DNA of 64,000 nt from a virus. Lineage: Duplodnaviria; Heunggongvirae; Uroviricota; Caudoviricetes. The DNA lies in the IMG/VR virus record IMGVR_UViG_3300049617_000342, positions 18,536 through 82,535 of that record; one strand, written 5' to 3'. The translations under genes and the position numbers were made by a program. This document shows positions 18,531 through 59,647 of this stretch, in pieces; the stretch's first letter is position 1, and every line of letters begins with the position of its first letter. The notes beneath the pieces are model-generated. The model did no database searches and was not told the origin of the DNA. It was given only the letters and a program-made list of their open reading frames with translations.

Positions 18531-18556
18531 TCGCCTATATCGTACCAAGGTTGGAG

Positions 18557-36136: not shown

Positions 36137-36146
36137 AATGTGCCCG

Positions 36147-36161
36147 AGGCTCTCAGAGCCT
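36147..36161. promoter_or_regulatory. perfect 15-bp palindrome AGGCTCTcAGAGCCT
   Basis: It sits immediately after the stop of the 35558 gene and before the aminotransferase gene. It could be an operator or a short terminator stem. Confidence 0.25.
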
Positions 36162-36218
36162 TGCGGAACCCAGGGGGCCACCGCCAGAAATGGCTCCCGA
36201 ACTTTTCACGGAGAACCG

Positions 36219-39932: not shown

Positions 39933-40119
39933 GCCCCAAAGGGCGCCGCGCCCGTTCCACCCCATCTACCTGAAGGGGAACAAGAAGCGGTCCAGGAAGG
40001 ACTGGGACTTCTCCACCGCCGACGTCAAGGTAGTCTTCGAGAAGGAGGGCGGCTGGGAGGTCGTCCTGTCGAGCGGCCGCAGGATGATGGTCAAGAGGGT
40101 AGCCAACCCCGCGAACTAA
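39787..40119 (+). CDS. hypothetical protein (110 aa), +1 frame relative to the previous ORF
   Basis: The C-terminal 60 aa are protein-like (…FSTADVKVVFEKEGGWEVVLSSGRRMMVKRV). Confidence 0.3.
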   Translation: MKPRKKSPRKPRRPILSVRVTTLPREGVADAPELFGQWVEGLLVDSEGRPQRAPRPFHPIYLKGNKKRSRKDWDFSTADVKVVFEKEGGWEVVLSSGRRMMVKRVANPAN

Positions 40120-40134
40120 AAGTACATTCTATAC

Positions 40135-41673: not shown

Positions 41674-41677
41674 TAGC

Positions 41678-42247
41678 ATGAAGAACACCATCGTCGTCAA
41701 CCTCTACGGCGGCCCAGGCGCCGGCAAGACCACGGTCTCGGCCGACCTGTTCGCCCGCCTCAAGAAGAGCTACGTGTCCTCCGAGCTGGTCCGCGAGTAC
41801 GTCAAGGACTGGGTCTGGGAGGGGCGCAGCATCAACCCGTTCGACCAGGTCTACATCCTCGCCAAGCAGTCCCGCAAGGAGCAGATCCTCTACGGCAAGG
41901 TCGACGTGGTCATCACCGACAGCCCCATCTGGCTGGTGCCCATGTACGAGCAGCTCTACGGCTCCAAGCCCCACATATGCCAGCAGATCGTCGACAAGTT
42001 CGCCAAGGAGGCCGAGGCCAAGGGAGTGACCTACCTCCACGTCCTGGTCGTGCGCGAGCACGCCTACGACACCGAGGGCCGGTACCAGACCGAGGTGGAG
42101 GCCAAGAAGCTCGACCAGCTCATGCGCGAGTACATGGACCTGAACTTCGGCACCGGCTACATTGAGATAGGCAGCTCGAGGGCCGTGGACACCGTGATGC
42201 ACATGCTGGCGGAGCAGGTCGGCAAGAACATAGGTAGACTTGAGTAG
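41678..42247 (+). CDS. P-loop nucleotide/nucleoside kinase-like protein
   Basis: 189 aa beginning MKNTIVVNLYGGPGAGKTT (Walker A at the N-terminus, like small kinases). Paralogous to the ORF at 47504. Confidence 0.5.
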   Translation: MKNTIVVNLYGGPGAGKTTVSADLFARLKKSYVSSELVREYVKDWVWEGRSINPFDQVYILAKQSRKEQILYGKVDVVITDSPIWLVPMYEQLYGSKPHICQQIVDKFAKEAEAKGVTYLHVLVVREHAYDTEGRYQTEVEAKKLDQLMREYMDLNFGTGYIEIGSSRAVDTVMHMLAEQVGKNIGRLE

Positions 42248-42286
42248 GCCAAGGCGCCCTCGACGGCGTACAGCCAGGGATATCCT

Positions 42287-42313
42287 AGCCCGGCGGAAAC
42301 GCTGGGCTTTTTA
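42287..42313 (+). terminator. putative rho-independent terminator
   Basis: AGCCCGGCG-GAAA-CGCTGGGCT with one mismatch in the stem, followed by TTTTTA. Located 40 nt after the kinase stop. Confidence 0.4.
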
Positions 42314-42395
42314 ACGCGCAAAATTTTAGTAGCGTTCGGCCCCGAACCGTGTTATTCTAATCGAGCCGTGCAATGCCGCACGCTGGGAGGTCCGC

Positions 42396-43328
42396 ATGAA
42401 TCCAGCCAAAAAGCTCACCTACATCCACCTAGACAACCCCACGAAAGACGAGGCCATGAAGTTCGTAGGCTTCGACGTCCACAGATCCCCGATCAAGTTC
42501 ACCGAGCCCAACGGCACCGTGCACACCTCCAAGAAGGAGACCATCTTCCGCATCGACGGCAACACCCCCATCGAGATGGGAATCTGCTCGCGCGGCTACA
42601 AGATCGTCCACCACACGGCGGCCCTAGCCAAGAGCTTCGAGGCCCTCGACAAGCTCGGCATCCCCTACAAGCTCACCCGCGTCAGCACCGACCAGAACGG
42701 CAGCAAGATGTACGCCCGCTTCGAGCTCATCAAGAAGTACCAGATCACCGAGGCACGCCTGGACGCCCTCAACCCCATCCTGACCACCATCAACGGCTAC
42801 GACGGCAACACCGGCCTGGGCTTCGACATCGAGAGCATCCGCCTCGTGTGCATGAACCTCGCCAGCACCAGCATGAGGGACGTCAGCAACAGGTATCTCC
42901 ACGTCGGAGACGTCAACCCCGAGAAACTCCTGGAAGTAGCGGCCCGCAGCCTCGACACGTTCGAGAACAAGCTCGTGCCCTTCTACAAGTCGATGGCCCA
43001 AAACGAGGTCACCAAGAAGGTAGCCATCAACGCCGTCGCAGTGGCAGTGAAGGACGGCATCCTCCCACAGGGCCTGGCCAACTTCGCCAAGCACTGCGTG
43101 GACAGCGACCACGCCAAACAAGAGGGCATCAAGCTAACGCCATGGGCGATGTTCAACGCCTTCACCTGGGCAGCCACCAAGAGAGACTCAGACGTGAGCC
43201 CCAGCCGCGCCAAGGAGATCAACGGCAAGATCGCCAGACTCTTCGCGGACGGCGGCAAGGACCTGGTTGCCAAAGCAGAAGCAATCACTGAAAAAGAAGT
43301 AAACGAGATCTTCGAAAAGGTGGCCTAG
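42396..43328 (+). CDS. hypothetical protein (310 aa)
   Basis: Well-formed ORF preceded by a 146-bp intergenic region. No motif recognised. Confidence 0.5.
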   Translation: MNPAKKLTYIHLDNPTKDEAMKFVGFDVHRSPIKFTEPNGTVHTSKKETIFRIDGNTPIEMGICSRGYKIVHHTAALAKSFEALDKLGIPYKLTRVSTDQNGSKMYARFELIKKYQITEARLDALNPILTTINGYDGNTGLGFDIESIRLVCMNLASTSMRDVSNRYLHVGDVNPEKLLEVAARSLDTFENKLVPFYKSMAQNEVTKKVAINAVAVAVKDGILPQGLANFAKHCVDSDHAKQEGIKLTPWAMFNAFTWAATKRDSDVSPSRAKEINGKIARLFADGGKDLVAKAEAITEKEVNEIFEKVA

Positions 43329-43343
43329 GAGGCCGCCTCCCCC

Positions 43344-43369
43344 TGGCCACGGACGGCCACCCCCTTTCC
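43344..43369 (+). terminator. weak hairpin + pyrimidine run
   Basis: TGGCC-ACGGAC-GGCCA followed by CCCCCTTTCC. Confidence 0.2.
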
Positions 43370-43380
43370 TAGGAGAAGGA

Positions 43381-43734
43381 ATGAAGAAGCTTGCACTAGT
43401 TCTATTGTTCCTGGCCGGATGCGGTCAGACCCAGAGCCCACCATACACCCAGCTCCACGGAGACTGGGCCTTCAGCCCAACGTCCTGGGTGTTCCTCGCC
43501 GGCAACCAGTTCACCTACCAGAAGTGCCCGCTCGCGACCCAGCCCTACGCCTGCTACAACGGCGCCGGAGGGTGCGCGGTGGTCGGGACCTGGACGGACC
43601 TGAACCCCGGGTCGTCCTCGGGATACATGTCGATAACAGTCAGCCCCCTCAGCACGTGCCCGGCACCAACCGGCACGGTGGTGGAGCCATACACAATCTC
43701 AAACGGAGTCTTAAACCTAGGAGGTTTCCAGTGA
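43381..43734 (+). CDS. lipoprotein (117 aa)
   Basis: Signal peptide + lipobox MKKLALVLLFLAGC. The mature part has 6 Cys. Confidence 0.55.
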   Translation: MKKLALVLLFLAGCGQTQSPPYTQLHGDWAFSPTSWVFLAGNQFTYQKCPLATQPYACYNGAGGCAVVGTWTDLNPGSSSGYMSITVSPLSTCPAPTGTVVEPYTISNGVLNLGGFQ

Positions 43735-44336
43735 TCAAGAAGCTAGCGTTCATATGGGCTGCCGTGCTCGGCATGCTCGTCGCCATGGCGACAACTGCGA
43801 AGGCAGGTTCTTTGCTAAACCAGGGCGTCAGCCTAGAGGTGGAGGGCGGCGGCCTCAACTACCAGCTCGAGAACAACGGCACGAGCAGCTACAACACGCA
43901 CAAGTGGTCGCCCGACGGACGGCTCAACTACAGCGGGCTCCTCGGAGTAAGGCTCGTGATGGAAGACCACCTCTTCTACAACTCGCTCATGCTCTACGGC
44001 GGCAACAACGGCATAGGCCAGCCGGTCGGAGGCCTCGTGCAGTCCAGCGGCTTCAAGATCGAGCGCATGGGCTACATCGGGAACGGCAACCACCCAGGGA
44101 CCCTCTACGTGGGCTGGGCCATCGGCGGCTACCTGCAAAACGACAACTCGTACAAGGCCACCACCGGCCAGTACCCAAACGAGCTCACCGCGTTCGGGAG
44201 CGAGGGCCTAGTGCCCATCCTCGGACTCGAGCTGGACTACAAGGTGCCCATCAGCGACAGCGTCTACATCAAGCTCGACGACATCATCCAGCCCTCGAAC
44301 ATCAACACCGCCCTCTCACTCGGATACACCTTCTGA
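43731..44336 (+). CDS. secreted beta-barrel (OMP-like) protein (201 aa, GTG start)
   Basis: GGAGG RBS. Signal peptide IKKLAFIWAAVLGMLVAMATTAKA. Gly/Tyr-rich alternating strands. C-terminal LGYTF. Confidence 0.45.
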   Translation: MIKKLAFIWAAVLGMLVAMATTAKAGSLLNQGVSLEVEGGGLNYQLENNGTSSYNTHKWSPDGRLNYSGLLGVRLVMEDHLFYNSLMLYGGNNGIGQPVGGLVQSSGFKIERMGYIGNGNHPGTLYVGWAIGGYLQNDNSYKATTGQYPNELTAFGSEGLVPILGLELDYKVPISDSVYIKLDDIIQPSNINTALSLGYTF

Positions 44337-44878
44337 TGAAAACCCTACTGGTCCTCACGACAGTACTGTTCCTGGCAGGGTGCGGCAGCCAACAGAGCGA
44401 CATCCTGGAAGAGCCCCCGATGTTCTCGGGGGTCGACCCCCAGATAAAGACCTGGTTCGACACGTTCACCAGCGAGAGCGGCGTCTCGACAGCCGGCATA
44501 TCGGCCGGGTTCACGGCCCTCCCGAACGGCATAGCCGGGGAGTGCGTGTGGGGCGGCGTCTACAACGAGGTCCGCATGGACACGAGCTACTGGGTCGTCC
44601 TCACCAACGACGGCTTCGGCGGCAGCGAGCGCATGAAGCAGCTCGTCTACCACGAGCTCGGCCACTGCGCCCTTTTCCTACAGCACATAAACGAGTGCTC
44701 CGACGGCACCACGGCCCCGGACGGCACCATAAGCAGCTGCAACCAGGGGCACAGCCAGCCCATGAGCATAATGAACTGGATGGCCTTCAGCGACGTGCAG
44801 GCCATAGGCTTTGTCAACAGCAACGCCAAATACGTCAACGCCCTCAAGGCCAACCAACCGATAGGGAGCTACCCATGA
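44336..44878 (+). CDS. lipoprotein with HExxH zinc-metallopeptidase motif
   Basis: MKTLLVLTTVLFLAGC lipobox plus VYHELGHCAL. Start overlaps the upstream stop (TGATG). Confidence 0.5.
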   Translation: MKTLLVLTTVLFLAGCGSQQSDILEEPPMFSGVDPQIKTWFDTFTSESGVSTAGISAGFTALPNGIAGECVWGGVYNEVRMDTSYWVVLTNDGFGGSERMKQLVYHELGHCALFLQHINECSDGTTAPDGTISSCNQGHSQPMSIMNWMAFSDVQAIGFVNSNAKYVNALKANQPIGSYP

Positions 44879-45288
44879 AGGCAAGACGATGGGAGAGAAC
44901 CACAAAGTTTGGTAGGGTCAAGTGGAGGGAGTACCGCTACACGGGAGTCCCCCTGGCCATAACCACGCAGATGAACGGCGTCTTCGAGACGCGATCGCAC
45001 ATCGATCCGAACTGGCACGCTACCGTGCTTAGAAGCTGGGACACGATAGAGTCCAACATGGCGTTCGGCCCCATGCCGTACAAAGAGGTCCCCATCTCCA
45101 CCATGACGGGAGGTCAAGGCGTCGGCGGGGGCGGTCGAGTCCAGATCATCGAGTGGAACACCAACAAGGGCGAGGGCCCATGGCAAAAGAACGAACACGG
45201 GGACCAGGTCCCCACGGAGGACAGACATGCCTGCACGTGCGACTTCACCGCGCTTCTACGAGACGGCTGCAAGTGCGGAGGTAGATAG
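44875..45288 (+). CDS. hypothetical protein with C-terminal 4-Cys motif (137 aa)
   Basis: Ends …HACTCDFTALLRDGCKCGGR. Paralogous C-terminus to the ORF at 46850. Confidence 0.45.
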   Translation: MKARRWERTTKFGRVKWREYRYTGVPLAITTQMNGVFETRSHIDPNWHATVLRSWDTIESNMAFGPMPYKEVPISTMTGGQGVGGGGRVQIIEWNTNKGEGPWQKNEHGDQVPTEDRHACTCDFTALLRDGCKCGGR

Positions 45289-45292
45289 GAAG

Positions 45293-45904
45293 ATGGTGAT
45301 CAACAAGGCCGCCCTGGAGAAGTACCCGAGATACGTCCCCGTAGCCGAGCGCATAGTACTCGTCCTCCGGGTCTGCGACGGCTCCCTCAGCGAGAAGGAC
45401 ATAGCCGACCACGTCGAGTGCCCCCTGGAAATCGTAGCCAAGGTATGCCGACCCCTCGAGGGCCGCTTCATCAGCTACGAGGGCAAGAGCCCGCGCCGGT
45501 CCGCCTTCAGCCACCGCTGGACGGCCGACATATTCTTCGTCGAGGCCATGAAGCACCTCAACGGCAACGCCGAGCTCGCCGTCAAGCTGGGGACCTACGA
45601 CTCCCGACGCCTGAAGAAGGAGCGCAAGGAGCTCGACCACTACTACTTCAAGATCACGCGCCTCATGTGCCAGGGCGAGCAGGGCTCCGCCAAGGAGTTC
45701 GCCGACGCCGTGGGATGCACCAAGGACCACGCCCTCCAGTTCTTCCGGTCGTGCGCCACCCCGGCCGGGCTCGTGAAGAGCGACGAGGTCAACGAGATAG
45801 AGGCCAAGATCTGGGTGTGGACCGGACCCGTCGCCATCGAGCACGCGGTCGAGGCCGCCAAGAGCGCCTGCATAGAGCACAAGTGGGGCCACGACGCCCG
45901 CTAG
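45293..45904 (+). CDS. hypothetical protein (203 aa)
   Basis: Internal ATG (MVINKAALEKY) with GGAGG RBS. Confidence 0.4.
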   Translation: MVINKAALEKYPRYVPVAERIVLVLRVCDGSLSEKDIADHVECPLEIVAKVCRPLEGRFISYEGKSPRRSAFSHRWTADIFFVEAMKHLNGNAELAVKLGTYDSRRLKKERKELDHYYFKITRLMCQGEQGSAKEFADAVGCTKDHALQFFRSCATPAGLVKSDEVNEIEAKIWVWTGPVAIEHAVEAAKSACIEHKWGHDAR

Positions 45905-45935
45905 CGTATAACCGAGTCGAACCCTAGGAGGCACC

Positions 45936-46850
45936 ATGCTCAAAGAGAGCACCATTTCCGAAATCAAGAGACAAATCGAAGAGCAGGGCTTCGCCCTCAT
46001 CCCCGAGTTCTACTCGCCGAGCTTCCTGAGGGAGCTGGACGACGAGGCCACCCTGATGGAGCAGCACTACACCCCCGAGAACATCGACAACCACAGCGTC
46101 TACCTCAGCGACCGCACCGACACGCGCGTCAGCAACGCCATGATGATCAGCCAGTCCGGGCGCAGCATGCTCCCCGTGGTCCCCGCGGCCGTGGAGAGCG
46201 TCGGCGGCACGACCACCCTGATGCACATAGTCCAGTTCCTCACGGACCACAACCAGATCATAGGGTCGCTCACCGGCAAGGACGTCGCCGCGAACAGCCG
46301 CAGCATGCTCAACTGGCAGCGCTACTCGGCCGGCAGCAAGCCCGTGGCCGCCCACTACGACGGCGAGTACCTCAAGTACAACAAGAAATCCCCCACCGAG
46401 TTCGAGCTGATCGAGGGCGTGCTGCCCAGGTACGTGCTCGTCCTCACGGTCCACAACGAGAACACCGACGGCCCACAGGGCACCGTGCTGACCGACCTAG
46501 AGACCGGCAAGACCTACGACGAGCTTCCCAGCAAGGAGGGCAACCTCCTGATCTTCGACAACATCCGCTTCCGACACGCGGTCCCCACGCTGCCCAAGCC
46601 CAGAAGGATGCTCGGGCTCCGAAACTGGGACCACAAGGGCGTGCACTACGTCCGCACCCCGGACCTAGCCAACGAGCTCAGCCAGTACCAGGTGATGCCC
46701 GACGGAGGCTTCCACTCGGTCCTAGACCTGATGAAGGTCCCCCTGGTGCAGCGCGAGTTCAGCGCCATCAACCGCCAGATCGACTTCATGATCGGCGGCG
46801 AGTGGGAGAAGATGCGGGCCCAGCAGAAGTCCGAGGGGGCGGTGTTCTGA
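45936..46850 (+). CDS. putative 2-oxoglutarate/Fe(II)-dependent dioxygenase-like protein
   Basis: 304 aa. The HYDGEY (HxD) … FRHAV (distal His) spacing is compatible with the 2OG-oxygenase facial triad. This is weak, motif-only evidence. Confidence 0.35.
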   Translation: MLKESTISEIKRQIEEQGFALIPEFYSPSFLRELDDEATLMEQHYTPENIDNHSVYLSDRTDTRVSNAMMISQSGRSMLPVVPAAVESVGGTTTLMHIVQFLTDHNQIIGSLTGKDVAANSRSMLNWQRYSAGSKPVAAHYDGEYLKYNKKSPTEFELIEGVLPRYVLVLTVHNENTDGPQGTVLTDLETGKTYDELPSKEGNLLIFDNIRFRHAVPTLPKPRRMLGLRNWDHKGVHYVRTPDLANELSQYQVMPDGGFHSVLDLMKVPLVQREFSAINRQIDFMIGGEWEKMRAQQKSEGAVF

Positions 46851-47242
46851 TGACGGCCGCCAACCTGAACGTAGCCATACGCGACGAGGAGGGGTTCACC
46901 ATCTTCAGCGCCGACAAGTGCACCATGGTCGACTCCCTAATAGCGACCACCGAGGAGTCGATCATACACCAGGGCCAGGGCAACAAGCTGATAGTCTCCA
47001 CCGTGGAGGTGCAGGGGCCGATCAGGAGGACCTACAAGGTCGACAAGTGGAACATGTCCGCCAACCTCCAGGGCAGGTACTCCATGAGCATAATCACCAG
47101 CGACGAGGTCCAGGGCGTGCACCTCGGCCGCGGCACGCCGGCAGCCGGGTTCGTGCCCGTGGCCCCGCCGGCCCAGAAGAAGAAGTGCAGCTGCACCATG
47201 AGGACCCTCATGATGCGCGGCTGCCAGTGCGGTGGCCAGTGA
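46850..47242 (+). CDS. hypothetical protein with C-terminal 4-Cys motif (130 aa)
   Basis: Ends …KCSCTMRTLMMRGCQCGGQ. ATG overlaps the upstream stop (TGATG). Confidence 0.45.
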   Translation: MTAANLNVAIRDEEGFTIFSADKCTMVDSLIATTEESIIHQGQGNKLIVSTVEVQGPIRRTYKVDKWNMSANLQGRYSMSIITSDEVQGVHLGRGTPAAGFVPVAPPAQKKKCSCTMRTLMMRGCQCGGQ

Positions 47243-47379
47243 GTCGCGCGCTGATCAACGTCCTCTGGATCGTGAACATCCTCATCCTGATATTCTGGAC
47301 CGTGCCCCAGTTCAAGCGCATCTACAGCGAGCGGCACTGCACGGACAACTCGTGCCCCTACGTGGCGCCGGGCAAATGA
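47239..47379 (+). CDS. small membrane protein (46 aa, GTG)
   Basis: VSRALINVLWIVNILILIFWTVPQF… GTGA overlap with the upstream stop. Confidence 0.3.
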   Translation: MSRALINVLWIVNILILIFWTVPQFKRIYSERHCTDNSCPYVAPGK

Positions 47380-47507
47380 GCCTCGACTTCTACATGCTGA
47401 TGTGCGGGTACTCGGTGTCGTTCATGTTCTACTGGAGCAACCCCATGTTCAACTGCCACACCATACTGGACAACCGCAGGGTGATGATCGCCATGGAGAA
47501 GAAGTGA
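47376..47507 (+). CDS. small hydrophobic protein (43 aa)
   Basis: MSLDFYMLMCGYSVSFMFYWSNPMF… ATGA overlap with the upstream stop. Confidence 0.3.
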   Translation: MSLDFYMLMCGYSVSFMFYWSNPMFNCHTILDNRRVMIAMEKK

Positions 47508-48091
47508 AGATAGCGGTGGGTGGGGCCCCGGGCAGCGGCAAGTCCACCATGGTCGCCGGCCTCTTCCACAGGCTGAAGACCAACGGCGTGCGCGCCGAGA
47601 TGGTGCCCGAGCTCATCAAGTACAAGGTCTACGACGGCGTGGACTTCACGCGCACGGGCTTCGACATCAGCAACACACTAGAGCAGCAGAAGCTCGAGGA
47701 GATCTTCGACAAGGCGCTGAGGAACGGCGACATAGACGTGGCCCTCTGCGAGGCGCCGCTCTGCAACGGGTTCTTCTACGCCACGTTCTACGGCAAGGAC
47801 CTCGAGGTCAGCGTGCTCAAGGCGATCACCGAGAAGGCCATGAAGAGCTACGACAAGTTCCTGCTCGTGCAGAGGCCCGACGAGGCGGACTACCAGGAGT
47901 TCGGCCGGCACGAGTCCAAGGGCAAGAGCGCGATGCTGCACGACCACATACGCCGCCGGCTGGGCCACCTGGGCGTCAGCGACCGGGTCGTCGTAGCCAG
48001 CGCGTTCGACGCCCCCGCCAAGGTCGCGGAACTCCTGGGGATAGAGAAGGACGCCAAAACCGCTGGCAATTCGGCCGGGGTCGTGATATGA
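47504..48091 (+). CDS. P-loop nucleotide/nucleoside kinase-like protein (paralogue of 41678)
   Basis: GTG start. VKIAVGGAPGSGKSTMVAGLFHRLK…VPELIKYKVY parallels GGPGAGKTT…SELVREYVKDWVW in the other kinase. Confidence 0.5.
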   Translation: MKIAVGGAPGSGKSTMVAGLFHRLKTNGVRAEMVPELIKYKVYDGVDFTRTGFDISNTLEQQKLEEIFDKALRNGDIDVALCEAPLCNGFFYATFYGKDLEVSVLKAITEKAMKSYDKFLLVQRPDEADYQEFGRHESKGKSAMLHDHIRRRLGHLGVSDRVVVASAFDAPAKVAELLGIEKDAKTAGNSAGVVI

Positions 48092-48110
48092 TTAAGGACT
48101 GGAGTATCCG

Positions 48111-48305
48111 ATGTGCCTGCTCTGCATTGAAATAGCCAAGGGAAACATGACGTACGGCGAGTACATACGCGCCCGCCGCGAGTTCGTCGGCACGACCAAC
48201 GAGGAGAGGGACCACCTCAAGGACCTCGACAGGATGACCATAGACCAGTTCGCCAGCGACGGTATAGACGAGCTGATGAAACCCAAGGAGAGCAAGAGAC
48301 CATGA
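48111..48305 (+). CDS. hypothetical protein (64 aa)
   Basis: ORF in the track. Confidence 0.35.
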   Translation: MCLLCIEIAKGNMTYGEYIRARREFVGTTNEERDHLKDLDRMTIDQFASDGIDELMKPKESKRP

Positions 48306-48598
48306 GAGTCTGGAAGGTCAGGATCATAGGGCAGGGAGCCGGCAACATAGAGAAGACGCTCAACGAGATAGAGAGAACCCCCGGGGTCACGCTACACCAG
48401 ATTCTGGTGACTGACCACGGCGTTAACGTCGTGACGTACACGGAGAAGGATGTATCCAATGAAGCAGGCAAGACAGGAAAAGCGAAGCCAGGTCCAGGTG
48501 GCGATACTGAGGGCGCGGGCGGTGTCTGCCAAGCAGGTACTCTTCCCGACCGCAGGGCTGGGAAAGACGACAACGCAGGTACAACTCTCCTTAACTGA
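48302..48598 (+). CDS. hypothetical protein; tail overlaps a +1 ORF at 48450..48665
   Basis: The N-terminal 55 aa are protein-like; the G/K/A-rich tail is doubtful. Confidence 0.3.
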   Translation: MRVWKVRIIGQGAGNIEKTLNEIERTPGVTLHQILVTDHGVNVVTYTEKDVSNEAGKTGKAKPGPGGDTEGAGGVCQAGTLPDRRAGKDDNAGTTLLN

Positions 48599-48665
48599 GC
48601 AGGGGTACAGCGTGGTGCCCGAGAACGTTCGCGGCAACCCGTACCTCAGAATAGGGTGGAAATGA
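48450..48665 (+). CDS. hypothetical protein (71 aa) with GLGKTT P-loop-like segment
   Basis: ORF in the track. Confidence 0.3.
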   Translation: MYPMKQARQEKRSQVQVAILRARAVSAKQVLFPTAGLGKTTTQVQLSLTEQGYSVVPENVRGNPYLRIGWK

Positions 48666-49021
48666 CATACGACAGAGAACCGAAGACAGAGAACACCAAC
48701 GGCAAGGGCGGCGCGTTCGAGCTCAAGTACGGCTACAGGAGCCGACGGCAGTTCCTCCTCGCCAGAAGCGTCAACCCGGACGTGTTCGAGAACATGGCCC
48801 GCGACCACTGGTGGTTCCAGAAGTCCGCTCTCCTTCACCCCGAGTGCCCCAGCCACATACGCGACTGGTTCTCCAGGGACCCGGTCTGGTACAAGCGCCT
48901 CGTGGCGTACTTCGCGACCAAGGGCCCCGAGGGCTACTGGTCCAAATCCGCCAACGACCCCGACAAGAGAATCCAGCGCATCTACCGCGCCATAACCCTA
49001 GTCCCATCGAAGATGGCATGA
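48656..49021 (+). CDS. hypothetical protein (121 aa)
   Basis: ORF in the track. Confidence 0.4.
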   Translation: MEMTYDREPKTENTNGKGGAFELKYGYRSRRQFLLARSVNPDVFENMARDHWWFQKSALLHPECPSHIRDWFSRDPVWYKRLVAYFATKGPEGYWSKSANDPDKRIQRIYRAITLVPSKMA

Positions 49022-49203
49022 CCGCCGCGATGATGTCCATGATAATGAGTTGGTGCGCCGCGGTCCACACCGTCGGGCCCGTGGTCGTCAACGGCCCCAA
49101 CCGCGAGCTCCAGTGCCGCGAGACGCTGATCAAGTGCGTCGACGGGATGAGCGAGCTCACCAACTCCATACCGGCCGACTGCCTCAAGAGGTCTCTCGAG
49201 TGA
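49018..49203 (+). CDS. hypothetical Cys-containing small protein (61 aa)
   Basis: ATGA overlap. Sequence MTAAMMSMIMSWCAAVHTVG…. Confidence 0.3.
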   Translation: MTAAMMSMIMSWCAAVHTVGPVVVNGPNRELQCRETLIKCVDGMSELTNSIPADCLKRSLE

Positions 49204-49376
49204 AGGTGCTCCTGGCAGTGCTGCTGGGGTTCCCGTGGCTCACCACTATCATCCTCTGGAAGGCCCTCAAAAACAGCAAGCAGGTAAACAAGCTCCTGGC
49301 GGACATAAACGCCGACATGGCGAGGAGGCTCGGGCAGCTCAGGGCCGTCGTCAACAGGAACAGCAAGGAGCTATAG
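49200..49376 (+). CDS. small membrane protein (58 aa, GTG)
   Basis: VKVLLAVLLGFPWLTTIILWKAL…. Confidence 0.3.
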   Translation: MKVLLAVLLGFPWLTTIILWKALKNSKQVNKLLADINADMARRLGQLRAVVNRNSKEL

Positions 49377-50107
49377 TGTCGAAGAAAAAGAAGGCTGGAC
49401 CGGCCAAGAAGGTGAATCCCAAGGACGACTACCCCGACGGGGTGATGGCGCCAATGCACTCCAGCGAGGCGCCGGTCAAGCTGAGCCACTGCGACTACCC
49501 CATCACGAACGTCATGGTCGACTCGGCCGAGGCCCTGGTAGAGCTAGCGGACAGCCAGCTCAAGATACTGGGCGACAGCGAGATGTACGGCTACACCATC
49601 GGGCTCATGCCCGGCTACGACAACGTCGCCCCGAGCAGGGTGTTCGGGCCCGTGGCCCTCATGACCTACTTCAACGTCAACCTCAAGCCCCGCATAGACA
49701 TGGCCACCATACAGCAGAACTGCCCGGACGCCAAGGGGAAGAGCGTCGACCGCATACTCCAGGGCTGGTACGGCGAGGACCTGTTCTTCGGCGTGGAGAA
49801 CTGCGCGAAGATCCTCAGGGCCAACCCGACCACCAAGCGCGCCGTCATAACCCTCGGGCGCCGGTTCCTCGAGGCCGACAGGGACGCCAGCGAGTGGAAG
49901 TGCATGCGCGAGCTGGTGTTCACGCTCCGAGACGGCAAGCTCAACTGCCACGCCTTCGCCAGGGCCCAGGCCCTAGAGGTGCTACCCAAGAACCTCTTCG
50001 TGAACACTTCGATACAGCGCGTGCTGGCCGAGAAGATCGGCGCGGAGCCGGGCTGGTACCTACACACCATGGCCCTGCTGTTCAGGGGCGGACAGGACAA
50101 GACATGA
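49376..50107 (+). CDS. thymidylate synthase family enzyme (ThyA / dNMP 5-hydroxymethylase-like)
   Basis: 243 aa with a GTG start (TAGTG overlap). The core KCMRELVFTLRDGKLNCHAFARAQ aligns with ThyA …[22 protein letters not shown]… (catalytic Cys, DGKL, second Cys/His). The size matches T4 dCMP hydroxymethylase (246 aa). Confidence 0.55.
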   Translation: MSKKKKAGPAKKVNPKDDYPDGVMAPMHSSEAPVKLSHCDYPITNVMVDSAEALVELADSQLKILGDSEMYGYTIGLMPGYDNVAPSRVFGPVALMTYFNVNLKPRIDMATIQQNCPDAKGKSVDRILQGWYGEDLFFGVENCAKILRANPTTKRAVITLGRRFLEADRDASEWKCMRELVFTLRDGKLNCHAFARAQALEVLPKNLFVNTSIQRVLAEKIGAEPGWYLHTMALLFRGGQDKT

Positions 50108-50337
50108 GCCAGAGAGAGATAAGCTTCAAGGACGAGTACGTCCCGGGGCCAGGCGACCGCAGCGAGCGCGAGCACGTCGACCTCATAGCCAAGGCCAACA
50201 CCGGGATGCGCGCCCTGAGGACCATCAGCGAGAAGTACGGCGACATGACGACCCAGGTCCGCGGCGACACCAAGGAAAGGCTCGAGGTCGGGGACAACTA
50301 CAAGAACATAGACATACAGTTCGAGGTGAAGAAGTGA
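50104..50337 (+). CDS. hypothetical protein (77 aa)
   Basis: ATGA overlap. Confidence 0.35.
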   Translation: MSQREISFKDEYVPGPGDRSEREHVDLIAKANTGMRALRTISEKYGDMTTQVRGDTKERLEVGDNYKNIDIQFEVKK

Positions 50338-50555
50338 AGTCCTACCTCGTCTCGAAGACCATAGCCAGCGTCCTCAAGACGGTCAAGGAGGGCGGGATGC
50401 TCACAGACGGCAAGAGCTACTGGAAGATGGGAAGCCAGGGGGTCGCGTACCCGGTGGACAAGAGGGGCACCCGCGTGTCGAAGGGCACCGAGCTGTGGTC
50501 CAACTGCACCATAGAAAAGAACGCCTACTGGCCCGGGCTCAAGAAGGTCAAGTGA
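50334..50555 (+). CDS. hypothetical protein (73 aa)
   Basis: GTGA overlap. Confidence 0.35.
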   Translation: MKSYLVSKTIASVLKTVKEGGMLTDGKSYWKMGSQGVAYPVDKRGTRVSKGTELWSNCTIEKNAYWPGLKKVK

Positions 50556-50782
50556 AGGGGTTCATCCTCAGCGTCAACTACCCGCTGGGCGCGGGGATCA
50601 TCAAGGCGCAGAACGGCCGCAAGTACTGCTTCCTGATGAAGGACCTGGGCGACGGGTACCCACCCGAGATCTACCCTCCCAAGAACGAAGACGACGTAGA
50701 GTTCGAGAAGGGCGCGCAGGGCCGCTTCGGGTACCCCGAGGCAACCAAGCTACGGTGGCTGAGCCGAATGGAGATAAAGTGA
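50552..50782 (+). CDS. hypothetical protein (76 aa)
   Basis: GTGA overlap. Confidence 0.3.
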   Translation: MKGFILSVNYPLGAGIIKAQNGRKYCFLMKDLGDGYPPEIYPPKNEDDVEFEKGAQGRFGYPEATKLRWLSRMEIK

Positions 50783-50973
50783 AATACAACGTCAAGATCA
50801 GGGTGACCATGAGCGGGGCCGAGACGGAGCAGTTCGAGGCAGCAGACGCCTCGCTGGCAAGGGCGGCCGCCGAGGAGTACGCCTCCAAGCAGCTGGTGGA
50901 CATGGCAAAGGAGACGAGCCCCGAGGACGAGTTCAAGTCGAGCTTCGTCATCGAGGAAGTGAAGGAAGCTTGA
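50779..50973 (+). CDS. hypothetical acidic protein (64 aa)
   Basis: GTGA overlap. Confidence 0.3.
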   Translation: MKYNVKIRVTMSGAETEQFEAADASLARAAAEEYASKQLVDMAKETSPEDEFKSSFVIEEVKEA

Positions 50974-51395
50974 ACGGCCTTCCCAAGCAGGTCATCGTCA
51001 TCAGGCGGGACCTCGGCATGAAGAAGGGCAAGATGGTCGCCCAGGGCGCCCACGCGAGCCTGGCCGTCTTCCTGAGCAAGGAGAACTTCTGGGCAGTGGA
51101 CGGGGAGCTCGGCGGCTTCGACTACTACTTCCACAACGGCGACGCCGAGGGCAAGATGCACGAGGCCATCGGAGAGTGGTTCAGCGGCAAGTTCACCAAG
51201 ATAGTCGTGGGAGTGGAGGGCGAGGCCGAGCTCAGGGCCGTATACGAGAAGGCGAGGGAGCTGCACCTGCCCTGCTCGCTGATACAGGACGCGGGCGAGA
51301 CCCAGGTGGCGCCCGGGAGCTTCACGGCGGCGGCCATCGGCCCCGGACCGGCGGAGATGATAGACGGCATAACAGGAGGCCTGAGGTTGCTATGA
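50970..51395 (+). CDS. peptidyl-tRNA hydrolase, PTH2 family
   Basis: KQVIVIRRDLGMKKGKMVAQGAHAS matches the PTH2 N-terminal signature (vRtDLkMgkGKiaAQcsHA). TTG start assumed; the start is uncertain. Confidence 0.6.
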   Translation: MNGLPKQVIVIRRDLGMKKGKMVAQGAHASLAVFLSKENFWAVDGELGGFDYYFHNGDAEGKMHEAIGEWFSGKFTKIVVGVEGEAELRAVYEKARELHLPCSLIQDAGETQVAPGSFTAAAIGPGPAEMIDGITGGLRLL

Positions 51396-51649
51396 GCAAG
51401 AAGACCACGTTGAAGCAGTTCGAGAAGAGCGGGTGGAGATTCCCCAACGGCCTGAACTCCTTCGAGAAGAAGGAGTACCTGAAGGTCTGGTCCACCGGGA
51501 AGTTCCCCAAGCACATGAAGGTCAAGATCGACAAGGACTTCGAGGCGACCAGCGCCATGGCCAGGGTCCTGGGCTACGGTAAGATCAGCTTCATAGCCAG
51601 GAAGACCAGGCGGTCGCCCTTCTACGCGGTGCTCAAGCTAGTCAAATGA
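51392..51649 (+). CDS. hypothetical basic protein (85 aa)
   Basis: ATGA overlap. Confidence 0.35.
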   Translation: MSKKTTLKQFEKSGWRFPNGLNSFEKKEYLKVWSTGKFPKHMKVKIDKDFEATSAMARVLGYGKISFIARKTRRSPFYAVLKLVK

Positions 51650-51855
51650 CCATGCCATCGGAGCGCTCCAGGGCGATAGGCTACGCGCACCAGTTCCTCA
51701 GGGACCTGCTCGACCCCAAGAAGACCCCCAGGGTGCCCAAGGCGATCAGGCAGCGGGCCCTCAGGGTGCTGCGCCACTACCCGTCGAACCTCTACGTCGA
51801 CATGGCCGCCAAGGTCGTGCCCGACATATTCGGCAACCGAAAGGACAACCCGTGA
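51646..51855 (+). CDS. hypothetical protein (69 aa)
   Basis: ATGA overlap. Confidence 0.35.
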   Translation: MTMPSERSRAIGYAHQFLRDLLDPKKTPRVPKAIRQRALRVLRHYPSNLYVDMAAKVVPDIFGNRKDNP

Positions 51856-52190
51856 GAAACTCCAACTGGCTAGCGGACGCCGTGATCCTGTTCGCGTACT
51901 GCCTGGCGGCCGCGGTCGCCGTCCCGGCGCTCGCCGACAACTGGGACCTGCCGACGGCCTCCGTTGCCCACGAGAAGTCCGTGGCCAACGACAAGGCGCA
52001 GGAGAGGGCGCAGGCCGAGGAGACCTGGCACTACGTCATCAAGAGCGTCGACTACGCCATGCAGATGGGGGACACCCACTGCCAGGTGAACTACGAGGTC
52101 AGCCGCTTCCCCAAGATACGGCAGAACCTGGAGGCCAAGGGCTACACCTTCAAGATGATCGGGCTCAGCCTGGTCGAGGTGAGCTGGTGA
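51852..52190 (+). CDS. hypothetical protein with N-terminal hydrophobic segment (112 aa)
   Basis: GTGA overlap. Confidence 0.35.
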   Translation: MRNSNWLADAVILFAYCLAAAVAVPALADNWDLPTASVAHEKSVANDKAQERAQAEETWHYVIKSVDYAMQMGDTHCQVNYEVSRFPKIRQNLEAKGYTFKMIGLSLVEVSW

Positions 52191-52498
52191 CGCCGGACTG
52201 GGACGACCTCATAAAGGCGGTGCTCGGCGACGGGGATCTGCCCAAGGGCACAGTCACGACGTTCCAGAGCAGCGTCAGCAGCGTATCCATAGCCACCAGC
52301 GAGGACAGCAAGATGACGACGGTCAAGGTGGACGGCAAGGTCCTTACCGGCGCCGAGGCCAAGAAGGTCCAGAACGAGATAGCGGACATGCTCGCGACCT
52401 CCATGGGCGCCACGGACAAGACCAAGGAGGCCCTGGAGAAGATGAAGGCCAGCGCCGAGAAGATGGCGTCCAAGCTGAAGAAGAGGGGCAAGAAGTGA
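52187..52498 (+). CDS. hypothetical protein (103 aa)
   Basis: GTGA overlap. Confidence 0.35.
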   Translation: MTPDWDDLIKAVLGDGDLPKGTVTTFQSSVSSVSIATSEDSKMTTVKVDGKVLTGAEAKKVQNEIADMLATSMGATDKTKEALEKMKASAEKMASKLKKRGKK

Positions 52499-52815
52499 CC
52501 GAGAAGGCGCCCGAGGGCAAGGTCGACATGGAGGCCATCAGGAGGGCGCTCGGCGAGCTGACCAAGAAGCGCGTCACGATAGCCCAGCAGGTCTCGTGGT
52601 ACTTCAGGACGTACCTGCCGAAGATCGCCAAGGGCGCCGGGTACTGCAAGAGGCACGACTGGTTCTACGTGAAGGAGCCGCTGACCAGGGGCGGCCCGGT
52701 GTGCGAGTGCACGATGTGCGACCTCGAGAAGCTGACCGGCGCCGCCATCGCGGACGGCCTGAACCCCTACGACGGGTTCAAGAAGATCCCCACGGCCGCC
52801 GCCCCCAGGAAGTAG
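52495..52815 (+). CDS. hypothetical protein with CxC…C…CxxC cluster (106 aa)
   Basis: GTGA overlap. Confidence 0.35.
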   Translation: MTEKAPEGKVDMEAIRRALGELTKKRVTIAQQVSWYFRTYLPKIAKGAGYCKRHDWFYVKEPLTRGGPVCECTMCDLEKLTGAAIADGLNPYDGFKKIPTAAAPRK

Positions 52816-52848
52816 ACTAATCCAGTAACCAAATCGCAAGGAGAGCCA

Positions 52849-53148
52849 ATGAGCGAGCAGCCACAGCAGCAGTACCCGTTCCTGTTCACGGCGGCCGAGG
52901 TGAACCTCATCCTCAAGGGCCTGGAGGAGCTTCCGCACAAGCTGAGCGCGGGCCTCATAGGGCAAATCCTGAGCGGCGCGAAGGCCATAGAGGCCAAGGC
53001 GGCGGAGGCGGCCGAGAACCTGAAGAAGTCGAAGGCGGAGTACGCTGACAGGCGGGACGCGAAGGCGGAGGGGCCGAAGGTGGAGGCCAAGCCGGAGCAG
53101 CCCAAGAAGTCGTCCGGGCCGAAGCTGGCCAAGTCCCTCCAGAGCTAG
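52849..53148 (+). CDS. hypothetical protein (99 aa), Ala/Lys/Glu-rich C-terminus
   Basis: Last gene of the rightward block. Confidence 0.4.
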   Translation: MSEQPQQQYPFLFTAAEVNLILKGLEELPHKLSAGLIGQILSGAKAIEAKAAEAAENLKKSKAEYADRRDAKAEGPKVEAKPEQPKKSSGPKLAKSLQS

Positions 53149-53390
53149 GGCACGAAGGGCGGCTTGGCGGGCCACACGATGGTCGTGGGGTCCGTCTTGT
53201 TCGGGTCCATGCACGTCCTGAGCGCCTGGATGTACTGCAGAAGCTGCACGTAGAGGGGCTGCGCTAGCGTCGTCTGTATGTGCAGGGCCTGCTCGTCGAG
53301 GTGCCGGGCCCTCATCCACTCGCACTGTATTATCAGCCCGTTCCTCTTGGCCCTGGCCATGGCCATCCCGTTCTGGTTCCTAGCTGGCAT
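53145..53390 (-). CDS. hypothetical protein (81 aa)
   Basis: Its stop overlaps the stop of the convergent plus-strand gene (cTAGg read on both strands). Confidence 0.4.
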   Translation of the reverse strand: MPARNQNGMAMARAKRNGLIIQCEWMRARHLDEQALHIQTTLAQPLYVQLLQYIQALRTCMDPNKTDPTTIVWPAKPPFVP

Positions 53391-53399
53391 TCAACCCTC

Positions 53400-56300
53400 C
53401 TATGATATCGGTATCGGGTTCGTGAAGATCGAGTAAGTAGAGGCGGTGAACTCGTCCGACCCGTTCAAGGGGGTCAGGCCGCCGGTGGTCCAGGACTGGT
53501 ATCCGAAGTTGATGTACCCCACGCTGGGTTTCAGGAGCACGGTGAAGTTGACCGCCACGTTGTCCCCCTTGGCCATGTAGCCGCAAAGCTCCACCGGGCT
53601 GAAGACCTTGGTCGCCTGCGAGGTGTAGCCGGGCGGCAGCGACACCTGGGCCTCGCTGGCGCTCGTGGTGGCCACCGCCATGGTTCCCTTTATCAGTATC
53701 GAGTCCGTCCCGTCGAACTTGTACCAGAAGCTGGAGGACGACACGGTGATCCCCGAGAAGGTCGGGGTGTACGGCGTCCACACGGTCGGCCCAATGGCCT
53801 TGGCCCCGCTTAGAAGCTCGATCGAGAAGGACGAGTTGATCGGGGCCGTGCCGCCGTTGACGTTGTGGGTGGTGTCGATCCAGATGGCCACCGTGTCGCC
53901 CTGGTTCAGCTGGACCTCGGCCGTGCCGGACGCGGCCGCGGAGCCTATGATCTGGCAGAGCGTTAGGTACGCGGCGCCGTTGACCGCGAGGAACACGTCG
54001 CTGTTCGAGCTGCTCACGCTCAGCGCGCAGCTCACCCTGTAGGTGCCCTTGAACGGGGCGGTGTATAGGCCCGTGCCGGTGGCGTAGGCGTTGTCGGTGT
54101 CGAACGAGACCGTGTCGAACGTTATCGGGCTGTTCGCGCCTATGTTGGTGGTCGTGTTCATGTAGGCGGACGCCGACACCAGACGGCCTATGCCGGTGGA
54201 CACGCTCGGGGCCTGCGCCGCCAGGGTTATCGAGACGGTGGGTATGTAGCCGACGTCGGTGCCCGTCAGGGCGCTGTAGTTGAGGGTGGTGGACGTGTCG
54301 TAGACGATCGTGGCCACGTCGCCGGCGTTTAGGAACACCTGCAGGGTGCCGCTGGTTATGGCGGACTGGTTGTGCGTGAGGCGGCCCCCGACGTTGACGC
54401 CGTTGACGTTCACGTACGTGTCGGCCACGGTGGTGGGGAAGAAGCAGGTCGCCTGGAAGTCGTAGTAGCCGCTGACCGGGGCCGTGAACTGGCCGTTGGT
54501 GGCGTTGTACGCGCTGTTGGTGTCGTAGTAGGTGAACGGGAACACGATGGGCACCCCGGCCGTCACCGAGAGGGTGCCGCTGCTGGCCGGGTTGACCCCG
54601 AACTTGGCGGTGACGCCGGGCATCTGTGCGCCCGTCGGTGCTCCGAACGAGCCCAGCGGCTTGGCGAACAGCTTGCAGCCGACGACGGCCTGGTCGCCTC
54701 GGTTGGTGCCGCCGCCGACGTAGACGGTGTAGGTGTGCGTGCCGGCGGGCGGGCTGTCTATGAAGCTGTAGCCCGAGGCCGGCGTCATCAGGATGTTTAT
54801 GGAGATGTTGTCCTGCATCTGCTGGTAGCCGCCGCCCACGTAGGCGCCGTCCCTGTAGAAGCTGACGAAGGCGTAGCTCACCGCCGGCGTGGAGTCGGTG
54901 GCTATGTAGCCGGCCCCGTTGCCGCTGCCGTCGCTGCACAGGCCCACCAGTATGTCCCCGCCGTTGGTCTCCAGGGTGACCGATATGGGTGTGAGTCCGG
55001 TGTGGTCCATGACCTGCGTCGGGCCGGCGCCGGAGAACGAGAAGGTCCCGGTGGACAGGCTCTTGACGAGCGTGGAGACCGCGTCCTGCTGCGCCCCGTA
55101 GAGGCCCTTGATGGGCACCTTGAAGCTGGCGTACCAGTTGGCCCCGCTCTCGGCGAAGTTCAGGGCGTTCATCTTGCTGAACGCGCCGCTCGCTGTGGCG
55201 GCCGTGAAGTAGACGTTGTTGACGTCCGAGCCGTCGAAGAACGGGTAGGTCTGCCACTCGGCGGTGTTTATGCCGGCGGCGGTGCCGCTGGTCGTCAGAG
55301 AGTTGGCGAAGCCGTCGAGGGTCTCTCCCAGGCTGCTTAGCTTTGTGGCGTCCGCCTGGAGCCCGGCCGGGAGGCCGAGGGCCATCGGGGCCGCGGTCGA
55401 GCTGCCGACCAGCATGGACACCCTGAACTCCATGGTGTCGCCCACGATCCTGCTGAACGTCTGGAGGTTGCTGTACGCCCCGAAGCTGGCCGACGGCACG
55501 ACCTGCCTGGTGCTGACCCACGGGGTGACCGGCGCGGCCATGTTGCCGTTGAGCCCGACGCCCTCGGCGAACATGTAGAAGTTGGCGATGCCTCCCCTGA
55601 TGTAGAGGGTCCCGCCCGTGTTGGCCCCCTGGAGGTCGAACACGTAGGTCTTGCCGGCGACTAGGCTGTAGACGGACTGGCACCAGGCCGTGTCTATGAT
55701 GCCGCCCGTCGTCGCGTAGACCTCGCCCTGGCTCTCCTGGAGGAGGGCCGCTCCACCGCTGGTGTTCCACACCCTCACCGCGGCCTCCTGCGAGCTGCCG
55801 GTCTGGTAGAGGGAGACGTTGCTGTAGACCTTGTAGGTCCCGCTGATCACCGGCGTGAAGGTGAACGCCGGGCTGGTGCTGAAGGTCTGGAAGCCGCCGC
55901 TGATGCCCGCGCTCTGCGTCGTGACGGGACTGGAGGCGTAGAAGGCGAAGGCGCTGCCCTGCATGGCGCCGTTGGGGCCGTAGGTGCCGCTGGGCAGGTA
56001 GACGCTGCTGACCCACTGGGTCGTTATGTTGGTCGAGAACGCTATGTTCGCGACCCACGTCAGCACGTCGTTGGCGTTGAGCTTAAGGGCCATCACGAGG
56101 CCCTGGGCCCCCAGGGTGCCGGTGTTGTCTATTATCTCGCTGGTGGCGGAGCCGTTGACGTAGAGCTGCACCTGCTTGGTGCCGCCCGTGTAGTTGCCGT
56201 CCCAGCCCACGAGGTAGTAGCCGGAGTAGGGAACGACGTAGTGGCCGCTGGCGTTGTCGTAGGCGCTGTTGCTGTCGTACTCGGTGGTCCCCAGGGCTAT

Positions 56301-57533: not shown

Positions 57534-57539
57534 GGCTTC

Positions 57540-59609: not shown

Positions 59610-59647
59610 GGTGCCTCCTCCGCTTCACTTTCCGCGGAGTGCTGGGG

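Follow-up and report, generated by a model that had tools for sequence, protein, structure and literature searches.

A short thymidylate synthase-fold protein encoded together with a putative 2-oxoglutarate oxygenase in a tailed phage: an apparently folate-independent branch of the ThyA superfamily

The DNA analyzed here is a 64-kb stretch (the window) of a 93-kb contig, IMG/VR record IMGVR_UViG_3300049617_000342, and the gene under study encodes a short protein with the fold of thymidylate synthase (ThyA), called mini-ThyA below. The window is a fragment of a tailed-phage genome with a GC content of about 62%, which encodes a portal protein, a DnaE-type polymerase, a RecA-like protein, a GroEL-like chaperonin, a class II ribonucleotide reductase, and a fiber protein with C1q domains. 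No match was found when the region 40000–60000 was searched at the nucleotide level against 50,697 phage records. The gene and its translation signal are located as follows:

49376..50107, + strand: mini-ThyA, a short ThyA-fold protein of 243 amino acids (aa), characterized by its open reading frame (ORF), start, fold, residue mapping, and family conservation
49359..49369, + strand: Shine-Dalgarno sequence AAGGAG, 6 nt before the GTG start of mini-ThyA

The coordinates, the length of 243 aa, and the GTG overlapping the upstream stop are as described in the first-pass annotation of this DNA. The GTG at 49376 overlaps the TAG of the preceding 58-aa ORF (TAGTG), which suggests that the translation of the two may be coupled, and the TGA at 50105–50107 overlaps the ATG of the following gene (ATGA, 50104–50107). 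A later ATG start was ruled out and the GTG was kept because the Shine-Dalgarno sequence is strong, the N-terminal extension is shared with the homolog P0002, and a separate gene caller run on the identical Logan contig picked the same start and stop. The only close relative returned by a word-indexed protein search is 69% identical and is carried by a 912-bp contig. Residues 1–44 (49376–49507) form a Lys/Pro-rich disordered extension that occurs in the query and in the 69%-identical P0002 and in no other member of the family, while the ThyA-fold core spans residues ~45–240, that is, ~195 aa. The total of 243 aa is thus due to the tail, and the match in size to the hydroxymethylase T4 gp42, from which a protein of hydroxymethylase type had been suggested, is coincidental and misleading.

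The membership of mini-ThyA in the ThyA superfamily emerges from several comparisons. The Pfam model PF00303 (Thymidylat_synt) matches it with an E-value of 0.03 and 13.9 bits over profile positions 113–206 of 266, which is below the cut-off of 24.3 bits, so that Pfam by itself would not reveal the similarity. PHROG 160 (thymidylate synthase) matches at 1.4e-5, the best sequence match in the PDB is 9iqu (AfhB, 3.9e-6), and the best NCBIfam match is TIGR03283, the short methanogen ThyA (2.5e-7, 30.4 bits vs. a cut-off of 174.55); no NCBIfam ThyA model exceeds 30.4 bits, the cut-offs being at least 108. The PHROG, PDB, and NCBIfam matches agree on the C-terminal half (residues ~130–233). The segment KCMRELVFTLRDGKLNCHAFARAQ, corresponding to residues 175–198, aligns in every profile and structure comparison with the stretch of ThyA running from the catalytic Cys to Arg166, as had been noticed from the letters of the DNA. 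An AlphaFold (AF2) model built from a 90-sequence alignment has a predicted local distance difference test score (pLDDT) of 86, with low confidence over residues 1–44, and shows the α/β fold of ThyA. When this model was submitted to Foldseek, MilA, AfhB, T4 dCMP hydroxymethylase (dCH, gp42), and many ThyAs were returned with E-values of 1e-12 to 1e-9 and a probability of 1.00; the closest solved structure is AfhB, a flavin-dependent dCMP 5-hydroxylase. Since the profiles, the PDB matches, and Foldseek agree, the predicted ThyA-superfamily fold can be regarded as secure, and the original claim stands at the level of the fold. The comparison with T4 gp42 that had been proposed gives a match in fold, T4 dCH itself being a weak match.

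Residues were mapped by alignment with Escherichia coli ThyA, T4 dCH, HY126 AfhB, RL38J1 gp216, and other homologs, the E. coli ThyA and T4 dCH sequences used not being taken from database records. Residues Y132, K154-R155, C176, R196, and N206 of mini-ThyA correspond to Y94, R126-R127, C146, R166, and N177 of E. coli ThyA, respectively, and E173, K175, Q198, A199, and K205 correspond to L143, P145, C168, D169, and F176; R178 and E179 were also placed in the mapping. The dUMP-site set (C176, R196, K154-R155, and N206) is present and is invariant in 157–158 of the 158 family sequences described below. The specificity residue N206 is of the uracil type, and the Asp present at this position in dCMP enzymes is not found. 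In the folate site, Asp169 is replaced by Ala199, Phe176 by Lys205, and Pro145 by Lys175, and the equivalents of W80 and W83 are absent. The C-terminal lid is also absent, the chain ending ~12 residues past the last core strand with HTMALLFRGGQDKT; the contacts of His207 and Tyr209 with the 3'-OH have disappeared with the S/D-x-H-x-Y motif (205–209) and all that lies beyond it. Mini-ThyA keeps the residues with which a uracil 5'-nucleotide is bound and attacked at C6, and has lost the features that ThyA needs for methylene-tetrahydrofolate. In ThyA, Asp169 contacts the pterin and is required for catalysis.

Canonical ThyA (EC 2.1.1.45, including TIGR03283) thus shares with mini-ThyA the fold, Cys146, Arg166, Arg126/127 (as Lys-Arg), Asn177, and Tyr94, with a dimer-type phosphate site implied, but differs from it in the folate-site, 3'-OH, and lid features listed above and in its profile scores, which mini-ThyA reaches only below the cut-offs. 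T4 gp42 and the CMP hydroxymethylase MilA also count among the closest known systems; gp42 has the acidic residue at position 143 in common with mini-ThyA (Glu173), but its Asp177 is Asn206 here. Acidic residues at position 143 are a mark of enzymes giving a product other than a methyl group, including the hydroxymethylases (PMC13326640). One could imagine a folate-dependent one-carbon transferase, of the thymidylate synthase or the gp42-like hydroxymethylase kind, making dTMP or 5-hydroxymethyl-dUMP from dUMP and methylene-tetrahydrofolate, after which the oxygenase described below would oxidize the product. The retained residues and the acidic position 143 are in keeping with such an activity, TIGR03283 shows that short ThyAs exist, and the gene order of the operons would be compatible with mini-ThyA acting first. 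The loss of Asp169, which is missing from 158 of 158 family members, argues against folate-dependent hydroxymethyl transfer, as do the Lys residues at positions 145 and 176, the absence of the Trp pair, of His207/Tyr209, and of the C-terminal segment, the low Pfam and NCBIfam scores, and the weak match to T4 dCH; we consider this explanation quite improbable. In the first-pass annotation, the ThyA family was correctly recognized, as C176 and R196 are found both by sequence and by fold, but an enzyme of the gp42 kind or an ordinary ThyA is not supported, in view of Asn206, Ala199, and the lack of His207/Tyr209, and the inspection of the folate-binding residues that it recommended went against it.

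The third known class, that of the flavin-dependent hydroxylases (phage HY126 AfhB, PDB 9iqu/9iqc; RB69 gp48; DLP3 gp80), is the nearest to mini-ThyA in terms of both structure and PDB sequence. Its members are likewise short and phage-encoded beside a nucleotide kinase, and have the catalytic Cys, an acidic residue at position 143 (E173 in mini-ThyA), Gln168 (Q198), and no Asp at position 169. This likeness suggests an alternative in which mini-ThyA would be a flavin-dependent C5 hydroxylase of the AfhB/RB69 gp48 type with uracil specificity: Cys176 would activate dUMP, a flavin hydroperoxide lodged in the old folate site would give 5-hydroxy-dUMP, and the kinase would phosphorylate the product for incorporation into phage DNA. 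The differences are considerable, however. The identity with the AfhB class is only 16–17%, and of the class signature only L143E is present in the query (E173), N177D (N206) and D169N (A199) being absent; all the 5hodCMP synthases tested have Asp at position 177, and D169N has been proposed to be diagnostic of them (PMC13326640). The query also lacks the S-x-H-x-[YF] motif kept by AfhB, ends earlier, and has K-C-x-R-E and P-K-N motifs and a 2-oxoglutarate (2OG) oxygenase partner, with no arabinosylation or glycosylation genes nearby. Without Asp177 mini-ThyA is not a cytosine enzyme; without Asp169, a hydrophobic p-aminobenzoate pocket, and a lid it is not equipped like any folate-dependent member; judging from its residues, it fits none of the three known classes (cytosine, folate-dependent, and D169N flavin-type).

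To place mini-ThyA among its homologs, a HMMER scan of 1.84 billion representative proteins was performed, in which only five proteins had E-values of 1e-10 or below, corresponding to the query and proteins of ~200 aa. A profile search yielded hundreds of proteins of 190–250 aa from diatoms, dinoflagellates, other algae, and metagenomes, and many of the algal members carry organelle-type presequences. The named dinoflagellate members come from Polarella, Effrenium, and Durusdinium. Some proteins, dinoflagellate ones included, are matched by the query in 7–11 separate stretches, which suggests that they may be polyproteins; P0016 (777 aa), P0052 (925 aa), P0176, P0193, and P0198 were noted in this part of the family. 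A profile scan of genome contigs with a narrower alignment (A4) added 36 bacterial loci, from Archangium, Anaerolineales, Acidimicrobiales, Woeseia, Cellvibrionaceae, Halieaceae, Alteromonadaceae, Halioxenophilus, and Candidatus Actinomarina. Among 158 sequences, the residues Y98, N102, Q129, G130, Y132, K154, R155, K175, C176, R178, E179, R196, Q198, K205, N206, and G226 are changed in at most two. The signature of the clade consists of K-C-x-R-E, R-x-Q-[A/N], [P/V]-K-N, [ST]-K-R-A, and Q-G-x-Y together with an early end of the chain, and the motifs of the query (EWKCMRE, RAQA, PKN, TKRA, and QGWY) are those of the prokaryote and phage set.

With the hidden Markov model (HMM) of the family, the core members score 175–236 bits and the query 85.6 bits, and every representative of the characterized classes remains at or below 67.9 bits, the value obtained with a hydroxymethylase-like protein of an Enterococcus phage (Planchet gp65), as compared with 50.9 for AfhB, 22.9 for RL38J1, 20.6 for E. 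coli ThyA, and 5.8 for T4 dCH. The query, P0002, and P0003 thus appear to be divergent members of the mini-ThyA clade. Since AfhB and RL38J1 do not score above presumed folate-type homologs, these values count against the flavin-dependent hydroxylase. The residue at position 169 is Asn in 106 of the 158 sequences, Ala in 50, and Asp in none; the Asn comes from the alga-dominated set of the profile search, where the pair Q168-N169 is combined with Asn177 in an algal subgroup, whereas Ala is found in the query, in all the bacterial members, and in nearly all those of phages. The Q168-N169 pair, carried by 106 of the 158 members, favors the flavin-dependent hydroxylase, and the Ala of the query and of its bacterial and phage relatives counts against it. 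In the sources searched, the clade is given no name other than "thymidylate synthase domain" or "hypothetical," and no paper on it was found in the literature search. We conclude that the mini-ThyA proteins, which are widespread and uncharacterized, make up a branch of the ThyA superfamily that apparently works without folate and is coupled to a new family of 2OG oxygenases.

The high degree of conservation also bears on the question whether mini-ThyA is an enzyme acting on nucleotides at all. The protein might be a non-catalytic or retargeted ThyA fold, either a nucleotide-binding regulatory subunit of the oxygenase or an enzyme working on uracil or thymine within DNA or RNA, in which case the open C-terminus would admit the polymer and the basic N-terminal tail would bind the nucleic acid. 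The loss of the His/Tyr pair binding the 3'-OH and of the C-terminal lid, the 44-aa Lys-rich disordered tail of the query and P0002, and the tight co-inheritance with the oxygenase would fit this explanation. Yet Cys176, Arg196, Lys154-Arg155, Asn206, and Tyr132 are invariant in 157–158 of the 158 sequences, which speaks for catalytic action on a uracil nucleotide with a 5'-phosphate. The other family members have no basic tail, and the neighboring genes in bacteria, which encode dehydrogenases, nucleoside phosphorylases, and a transporter, point to metabolism. A role of this kind is hardly likely.

The genes of the window thought to be connected with mini-ThyA lie upstream of it:

45936..46850, + strand: Fe(II)/2-oxoglutarate-dependent oxygenase of 304 aa, as predicted from its HxD...H motif, its model, and its linkage to mini-ThyA
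47402..48091, + strand: P-loop nucleotide kinase (AAA_28; PHROG 2107 "thymidylate kinase"), between the oxygenase and mini-ThyA
41678..42247, + strand: second P-loop kinase resembling AAA_28 and "thymidylate kinase," from its AAA_28 and PHROG matches; its membership in the pathway is uncertain

The product of 45936–46850 has no match in Pfam or PHROG. It carries the residues H140-x-D142...H214 and R223/R229, the H-x-D...H motif and the Arg being invariant in 23 homologs, and its AF2 model (pLDDT 91) is a double-stranded β-helix, the nearest structures found by Foldseek being prolyl-4-hydroxylases (E ~1e-10). From the motif and the model, it is taken to be an Fe(II)/2OG oxygenase that represents a new family. 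In phage contigs of IMG/VR, the order is a thymidylate kinase gene (Tmk), a gene for a protein of ~290 aa, and mini-ThyA, all directly adjoining, and the ~290-aa protein is homologous to that of the window ORF 45936–46850 (42% identity, E 4e-66). This arrangement, in which the oxygenase homolog and Tmk adjoin mini-ThyA, was found in the phage loci L005–L008, L014–L017, and L054–L056. The window oxygenase is 42–47% identical to those adjoining mini-ThyA in phages and bacteria, and mini-ThyA lies within one gene of every oxygenase homolog with enough flanking DNA in both; P0003, P0005, and P0006, carried by contigs that are too short, were left out of the comparison. The oxygenase and mini-ThyA are the only genes that the cluster region of the window has in common with the other phage loci, and the pair behaves as a mobile two-gene module.

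No sequence match was detected between the window kinase 47402–48091, the real start of which is probably a GTG near 47504 (VKIAVGGAPGSGKST), and the Tmk of the other phages; we infer that it is a functional counterpart of the latter rather than a homolog. The presence of an adjoining kinase is a point in favor of the flavin-dependent hydroxylase, since the known hydroxylases are accompanied by a phage deoxynucleoside monophosphate kinase. A scan of about 50 ORFs covering the larger ORFs of the window yielded no ThyX, second ThyA, dUTPase, or dCMP deaminase, and no glycosyltransferase or enzyme of the aGPT-Pplase type; the lack of glycosyltransferase or sugar-activation genes near the gene in these scans speaks against the same hydroxylase. 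Two small ORFs of the same region, 44875–45288 (+) and 46802–47242 (+), the second lying directly 3' of the oxygenase gene, have a common Cys-rich end, C-x-C-x(9)-G-C-x-C-G-G-[RQ]-stop, their last 25 residues matching in BLASTP with an E-value of 1e-5, and may be small zinc-binding paralogs.

Among the 36 bacterial loci, an aldehyde dehydrogenase (ALDH) gene is located immediately upstream of mini-ThyA in 21. Ten loci, in Archangium and several Gammaproteobacteria, carry the genes in the order 2OG oxygenase, ALDH, and mini-ThyA, and 10 others, in Acidimicrobiales and Woeseia, have a Zn alcohol dehydrogenase (Zn-ADH) instead of the oxygenase. In the gammaproteobacterial locus L048 the oxygenase lies directly upstream of mini-ThyA without any ALDH, and the end-truncated contig L049 contains only ALDH and mini-ThyA; in the remaining 14 loci, no oxygenase, ALDH, or Zn-ADH was found within the flanks. 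The nearest relative of the Zn-ADH is benzyl-alcohol dehydrogenase and those of the ALDH are succinate-semialdehyde dehydrogenases. The genes form a compact unit in L018–L022, L031, L034–L038, L040–L042, L045, L047, and L049–L051, belonging to Archangium, Acidimicrobiales, Woeseia, Halieaceae, Cellvibrionaceae, and Halioxenophilus, and this unit looks like an undescribed pathway of pyrimidine salvage or catabolism. In two Anaerolineae loci (L025, 60–4279, and L030, 1318–4343), the genes around mini-ThyA encode three paralogous PNP_UDP_1 nucleoside phosphorylases, followed in L025 by a transporter of the major facilitator superfamily. In Candidatus Actinomarina, a FAD oxidoreductase (Pyr_redox_2) is encoded 4 nt downstream of mini-ThyA, as might be expected of a flavin-dependent hydroxylase; on the other hand, that explanation leaves the 2OG oxygenase, the ALDH, and the ADH, all of them conserved partners, without a role, and we regard it as rather unlikely.

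The fact that the dUMP site is conserved and the folate site lost in proteins whose genes adjoin those of oxidizing enzymes leads us to propose that mini-ThyA probably belongs to a new ThyA clade of enzymes that act at C5 without folate, and that it works together with the oxygenase. More specifically, the explanation that we prefer, quite tentatively, is that it uses its Cys, without folate, to cut the C5 substituent off an oxidized thymidylate, the flavin-dependent hydroxylase being the main alternative. It is conceivable, if somewhat doubtful, that mini-ThyA and the Fe(II)/2OG oxygenase bring about an oxidative demethylation of thymidylate to deoxyuridylate at the nucleotide level, via the 5-hydroxymethyl, 5-formyl, and 5-carboxy derivatives, in phages, marine bacteria, and algae. 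The oxygenase would turn the methyl group at C5 of a thymine nucleotide into hydroxymethyl, formyl, or carboxyl, and in bacteria an aryl-alcohol-type dehydrogenase and the ALDH would take over part of the oxidation, so that a variable first enzyme (the oxygenase acting on methyl or hydroxymethyl, or the dehydrogenase acting on hydroxymethyl) would feed a constant pair consisting of ALDH and mini-ThyA. The 5-methyl- or 5-hydroxymethyl-uracil nucleotide would thus be converted into the 5-formyl, then the 5-carboxy, and finally the uracil nucleotide. In the last step, mini-ThyA would add Cys176 to C6 and break the C5–C bond by decarboxylation or retro-hydroxymethylation, the net result being a reversal of the ThyA reaction in which folate plays no part. 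The invariant Lys175, Lys205, and Arg178, which would occupy the old folate pocket, could hold an anionic substituent.

A chemical precedent exists, in that the addition of a Cys to C6 enables C5-methyltransferases to release formaldehyde from 5-hydroxymethylcytosine and to decarboxylate 5-carboxycytosine. In phages, which have no ALDH in the cluster, the oxygenase might oxidize its substrate repeatedly, as thymine-7-hydroxylase (T7H) and the TET enzymes do, or mini-ThyA might take formaldehyde off 5-hydroxymethyl-dUMP, and the outcome could be the depletion of dTMP, the supply of dUMP, or the delivery of an oxidized analog to the adjacent kinase for use in DNA. The proposal resembles the fungal salvage of thymidine, in which thymine (T) is converted into 5-hydroxymethyluracil (5hmU), 5-formyluracil, 5-carboxyuracil, and uracil by T7H, a 2OG oxygenase that oxidizes the methyl group stepwise to carboxyl, and by iso-orotate decarboxylase (IDCase), which removes the latter (PMC6305744). 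The resemblance would be one of chemistry, as the proteins are unrelated: T7H is not similar to prolyl-4-hydroxylases and IDCase has a metal-dependent amidohydrolase fold. The fungal pathway acts on free bases, whereas here the substrates would be nucleotides and the C–C cleavage would be thiol-catalyzed.

Several points weigh against this oxidative demethylation. We know of no ThyA-fold enzyme that cleaves a C5–C bond. The gene order gives no direction to the pathway, and mini-ThyA could precede the oxidizing enzymes. The nearest protein in structure and PDB sequence is the flavin-dependent hydroxylase AfhB, Gln168 is common to that class, and most of the family members, which are algal, carry the Q168-N169 pair taken as diagnostic (PMC13326640). 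The ALDH resembles a semialdehyde dehydrogenase rather than one of the aromatic-aldehyde type, and since the phage clusters contain no ALDH, the oxygenase would need to perform several oxidations alone. What a phage would gain from converting dTMP into dUMP is not obvious. The proposed substrate, cofactor, and product are predictions drawn from sequence, and the genome context considered covers 64 kb of the 93-kb contig.

Nearly all the known pyrimidine hypermodifications of phage DNA start from the ThyA superfamily. A branch of it that had changed from folate to flavin was found only in 2025–2026, and mini-ThyA marks a further one. This branch spans phages, marine Gammaproteobacteria, Acidimicrobiales, Chloroflexota, Myxococcota, diatoms, and dinoflagellates, and its genes adjoin those of oxidizing enzymes both in phages and in over half of the bacterial loci considered. 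The reaction of mini-ThyA is probably new, and whether it is that of a C5–C lyase, a uracil hydroxylase, or another enzyme, it predicts that phages use a nucleotide chemistry not seen before and that their DNA may contain a new base, which would bear on the resistance of phages to restriction, on how thymine and 5hmU are recycled in the sea, and on enzyme engineering. If the oxidative demethylation were true, mini-ThyA would be the first ThyA-fold enzyme to run its chemistry backwards without folate, and the phage could erase dTMP from the pool or feed oxidized thymidine analogs into its own DNA. The mini-ThyA/oxygenase pair is small and soluble-looking and is open to direct testing.

Some other features of the window deserve mention. 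A class I/II aminotransferase dependent on pyridoxal phosphate (PF00155, E 5e-26; 36138–37412, +) adjoins the class II (B12) ribonucleotide reductase (37936–39582, +), which is unusual in a phage; the possibility that it belongs to the pathway, for example by converting 5-formyl into 5-aminomethyl, was dropped for lack of conservation in the other phage loci. The ORFs 43754–44878 and 44380–45288 were rejected as frame artifacts covering three smaller genes. According to the profile of GC content at third codon positions, a signal-peptide protein (MKKLAFIWAAVLG...) is encoded at ~43730–44336 (+) and a lipoprotein with the lipobox LFLAGCGS and a HELGH metalloprotease motif at ~44338–44878 (+), and the two together suggest a Gram-negative host. 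Downstream of mini-ThyA, the 141-aa protein encoded at 50970–51395 (+) matches PHROG 1866, a PHROG of unknown function (E 1.8e-25), and its sequence (GKMVAQGAHAS...) looks like that of a peptidyl-tRNA hydrolase of the archaeal/eukaryotic type (PTH2), which it may be. A tRNA-Arg(CCT) gene (18557–18632, –) overlaps the first 37 nt of the ORF of the 1324-aa DnaE-type DNA polymerase III α subunit (14619–18593, –), the real start of which is probably located further downstream. The minus strand also encodes the GroEL/Cpn60-like chaperonin (27333–29048), an SPFH/flotillin-domain protein (31295–32704), and a protein of 1377 aa with C1q domains at its C-terminus (53400–57533), which is probably a tail fiber.

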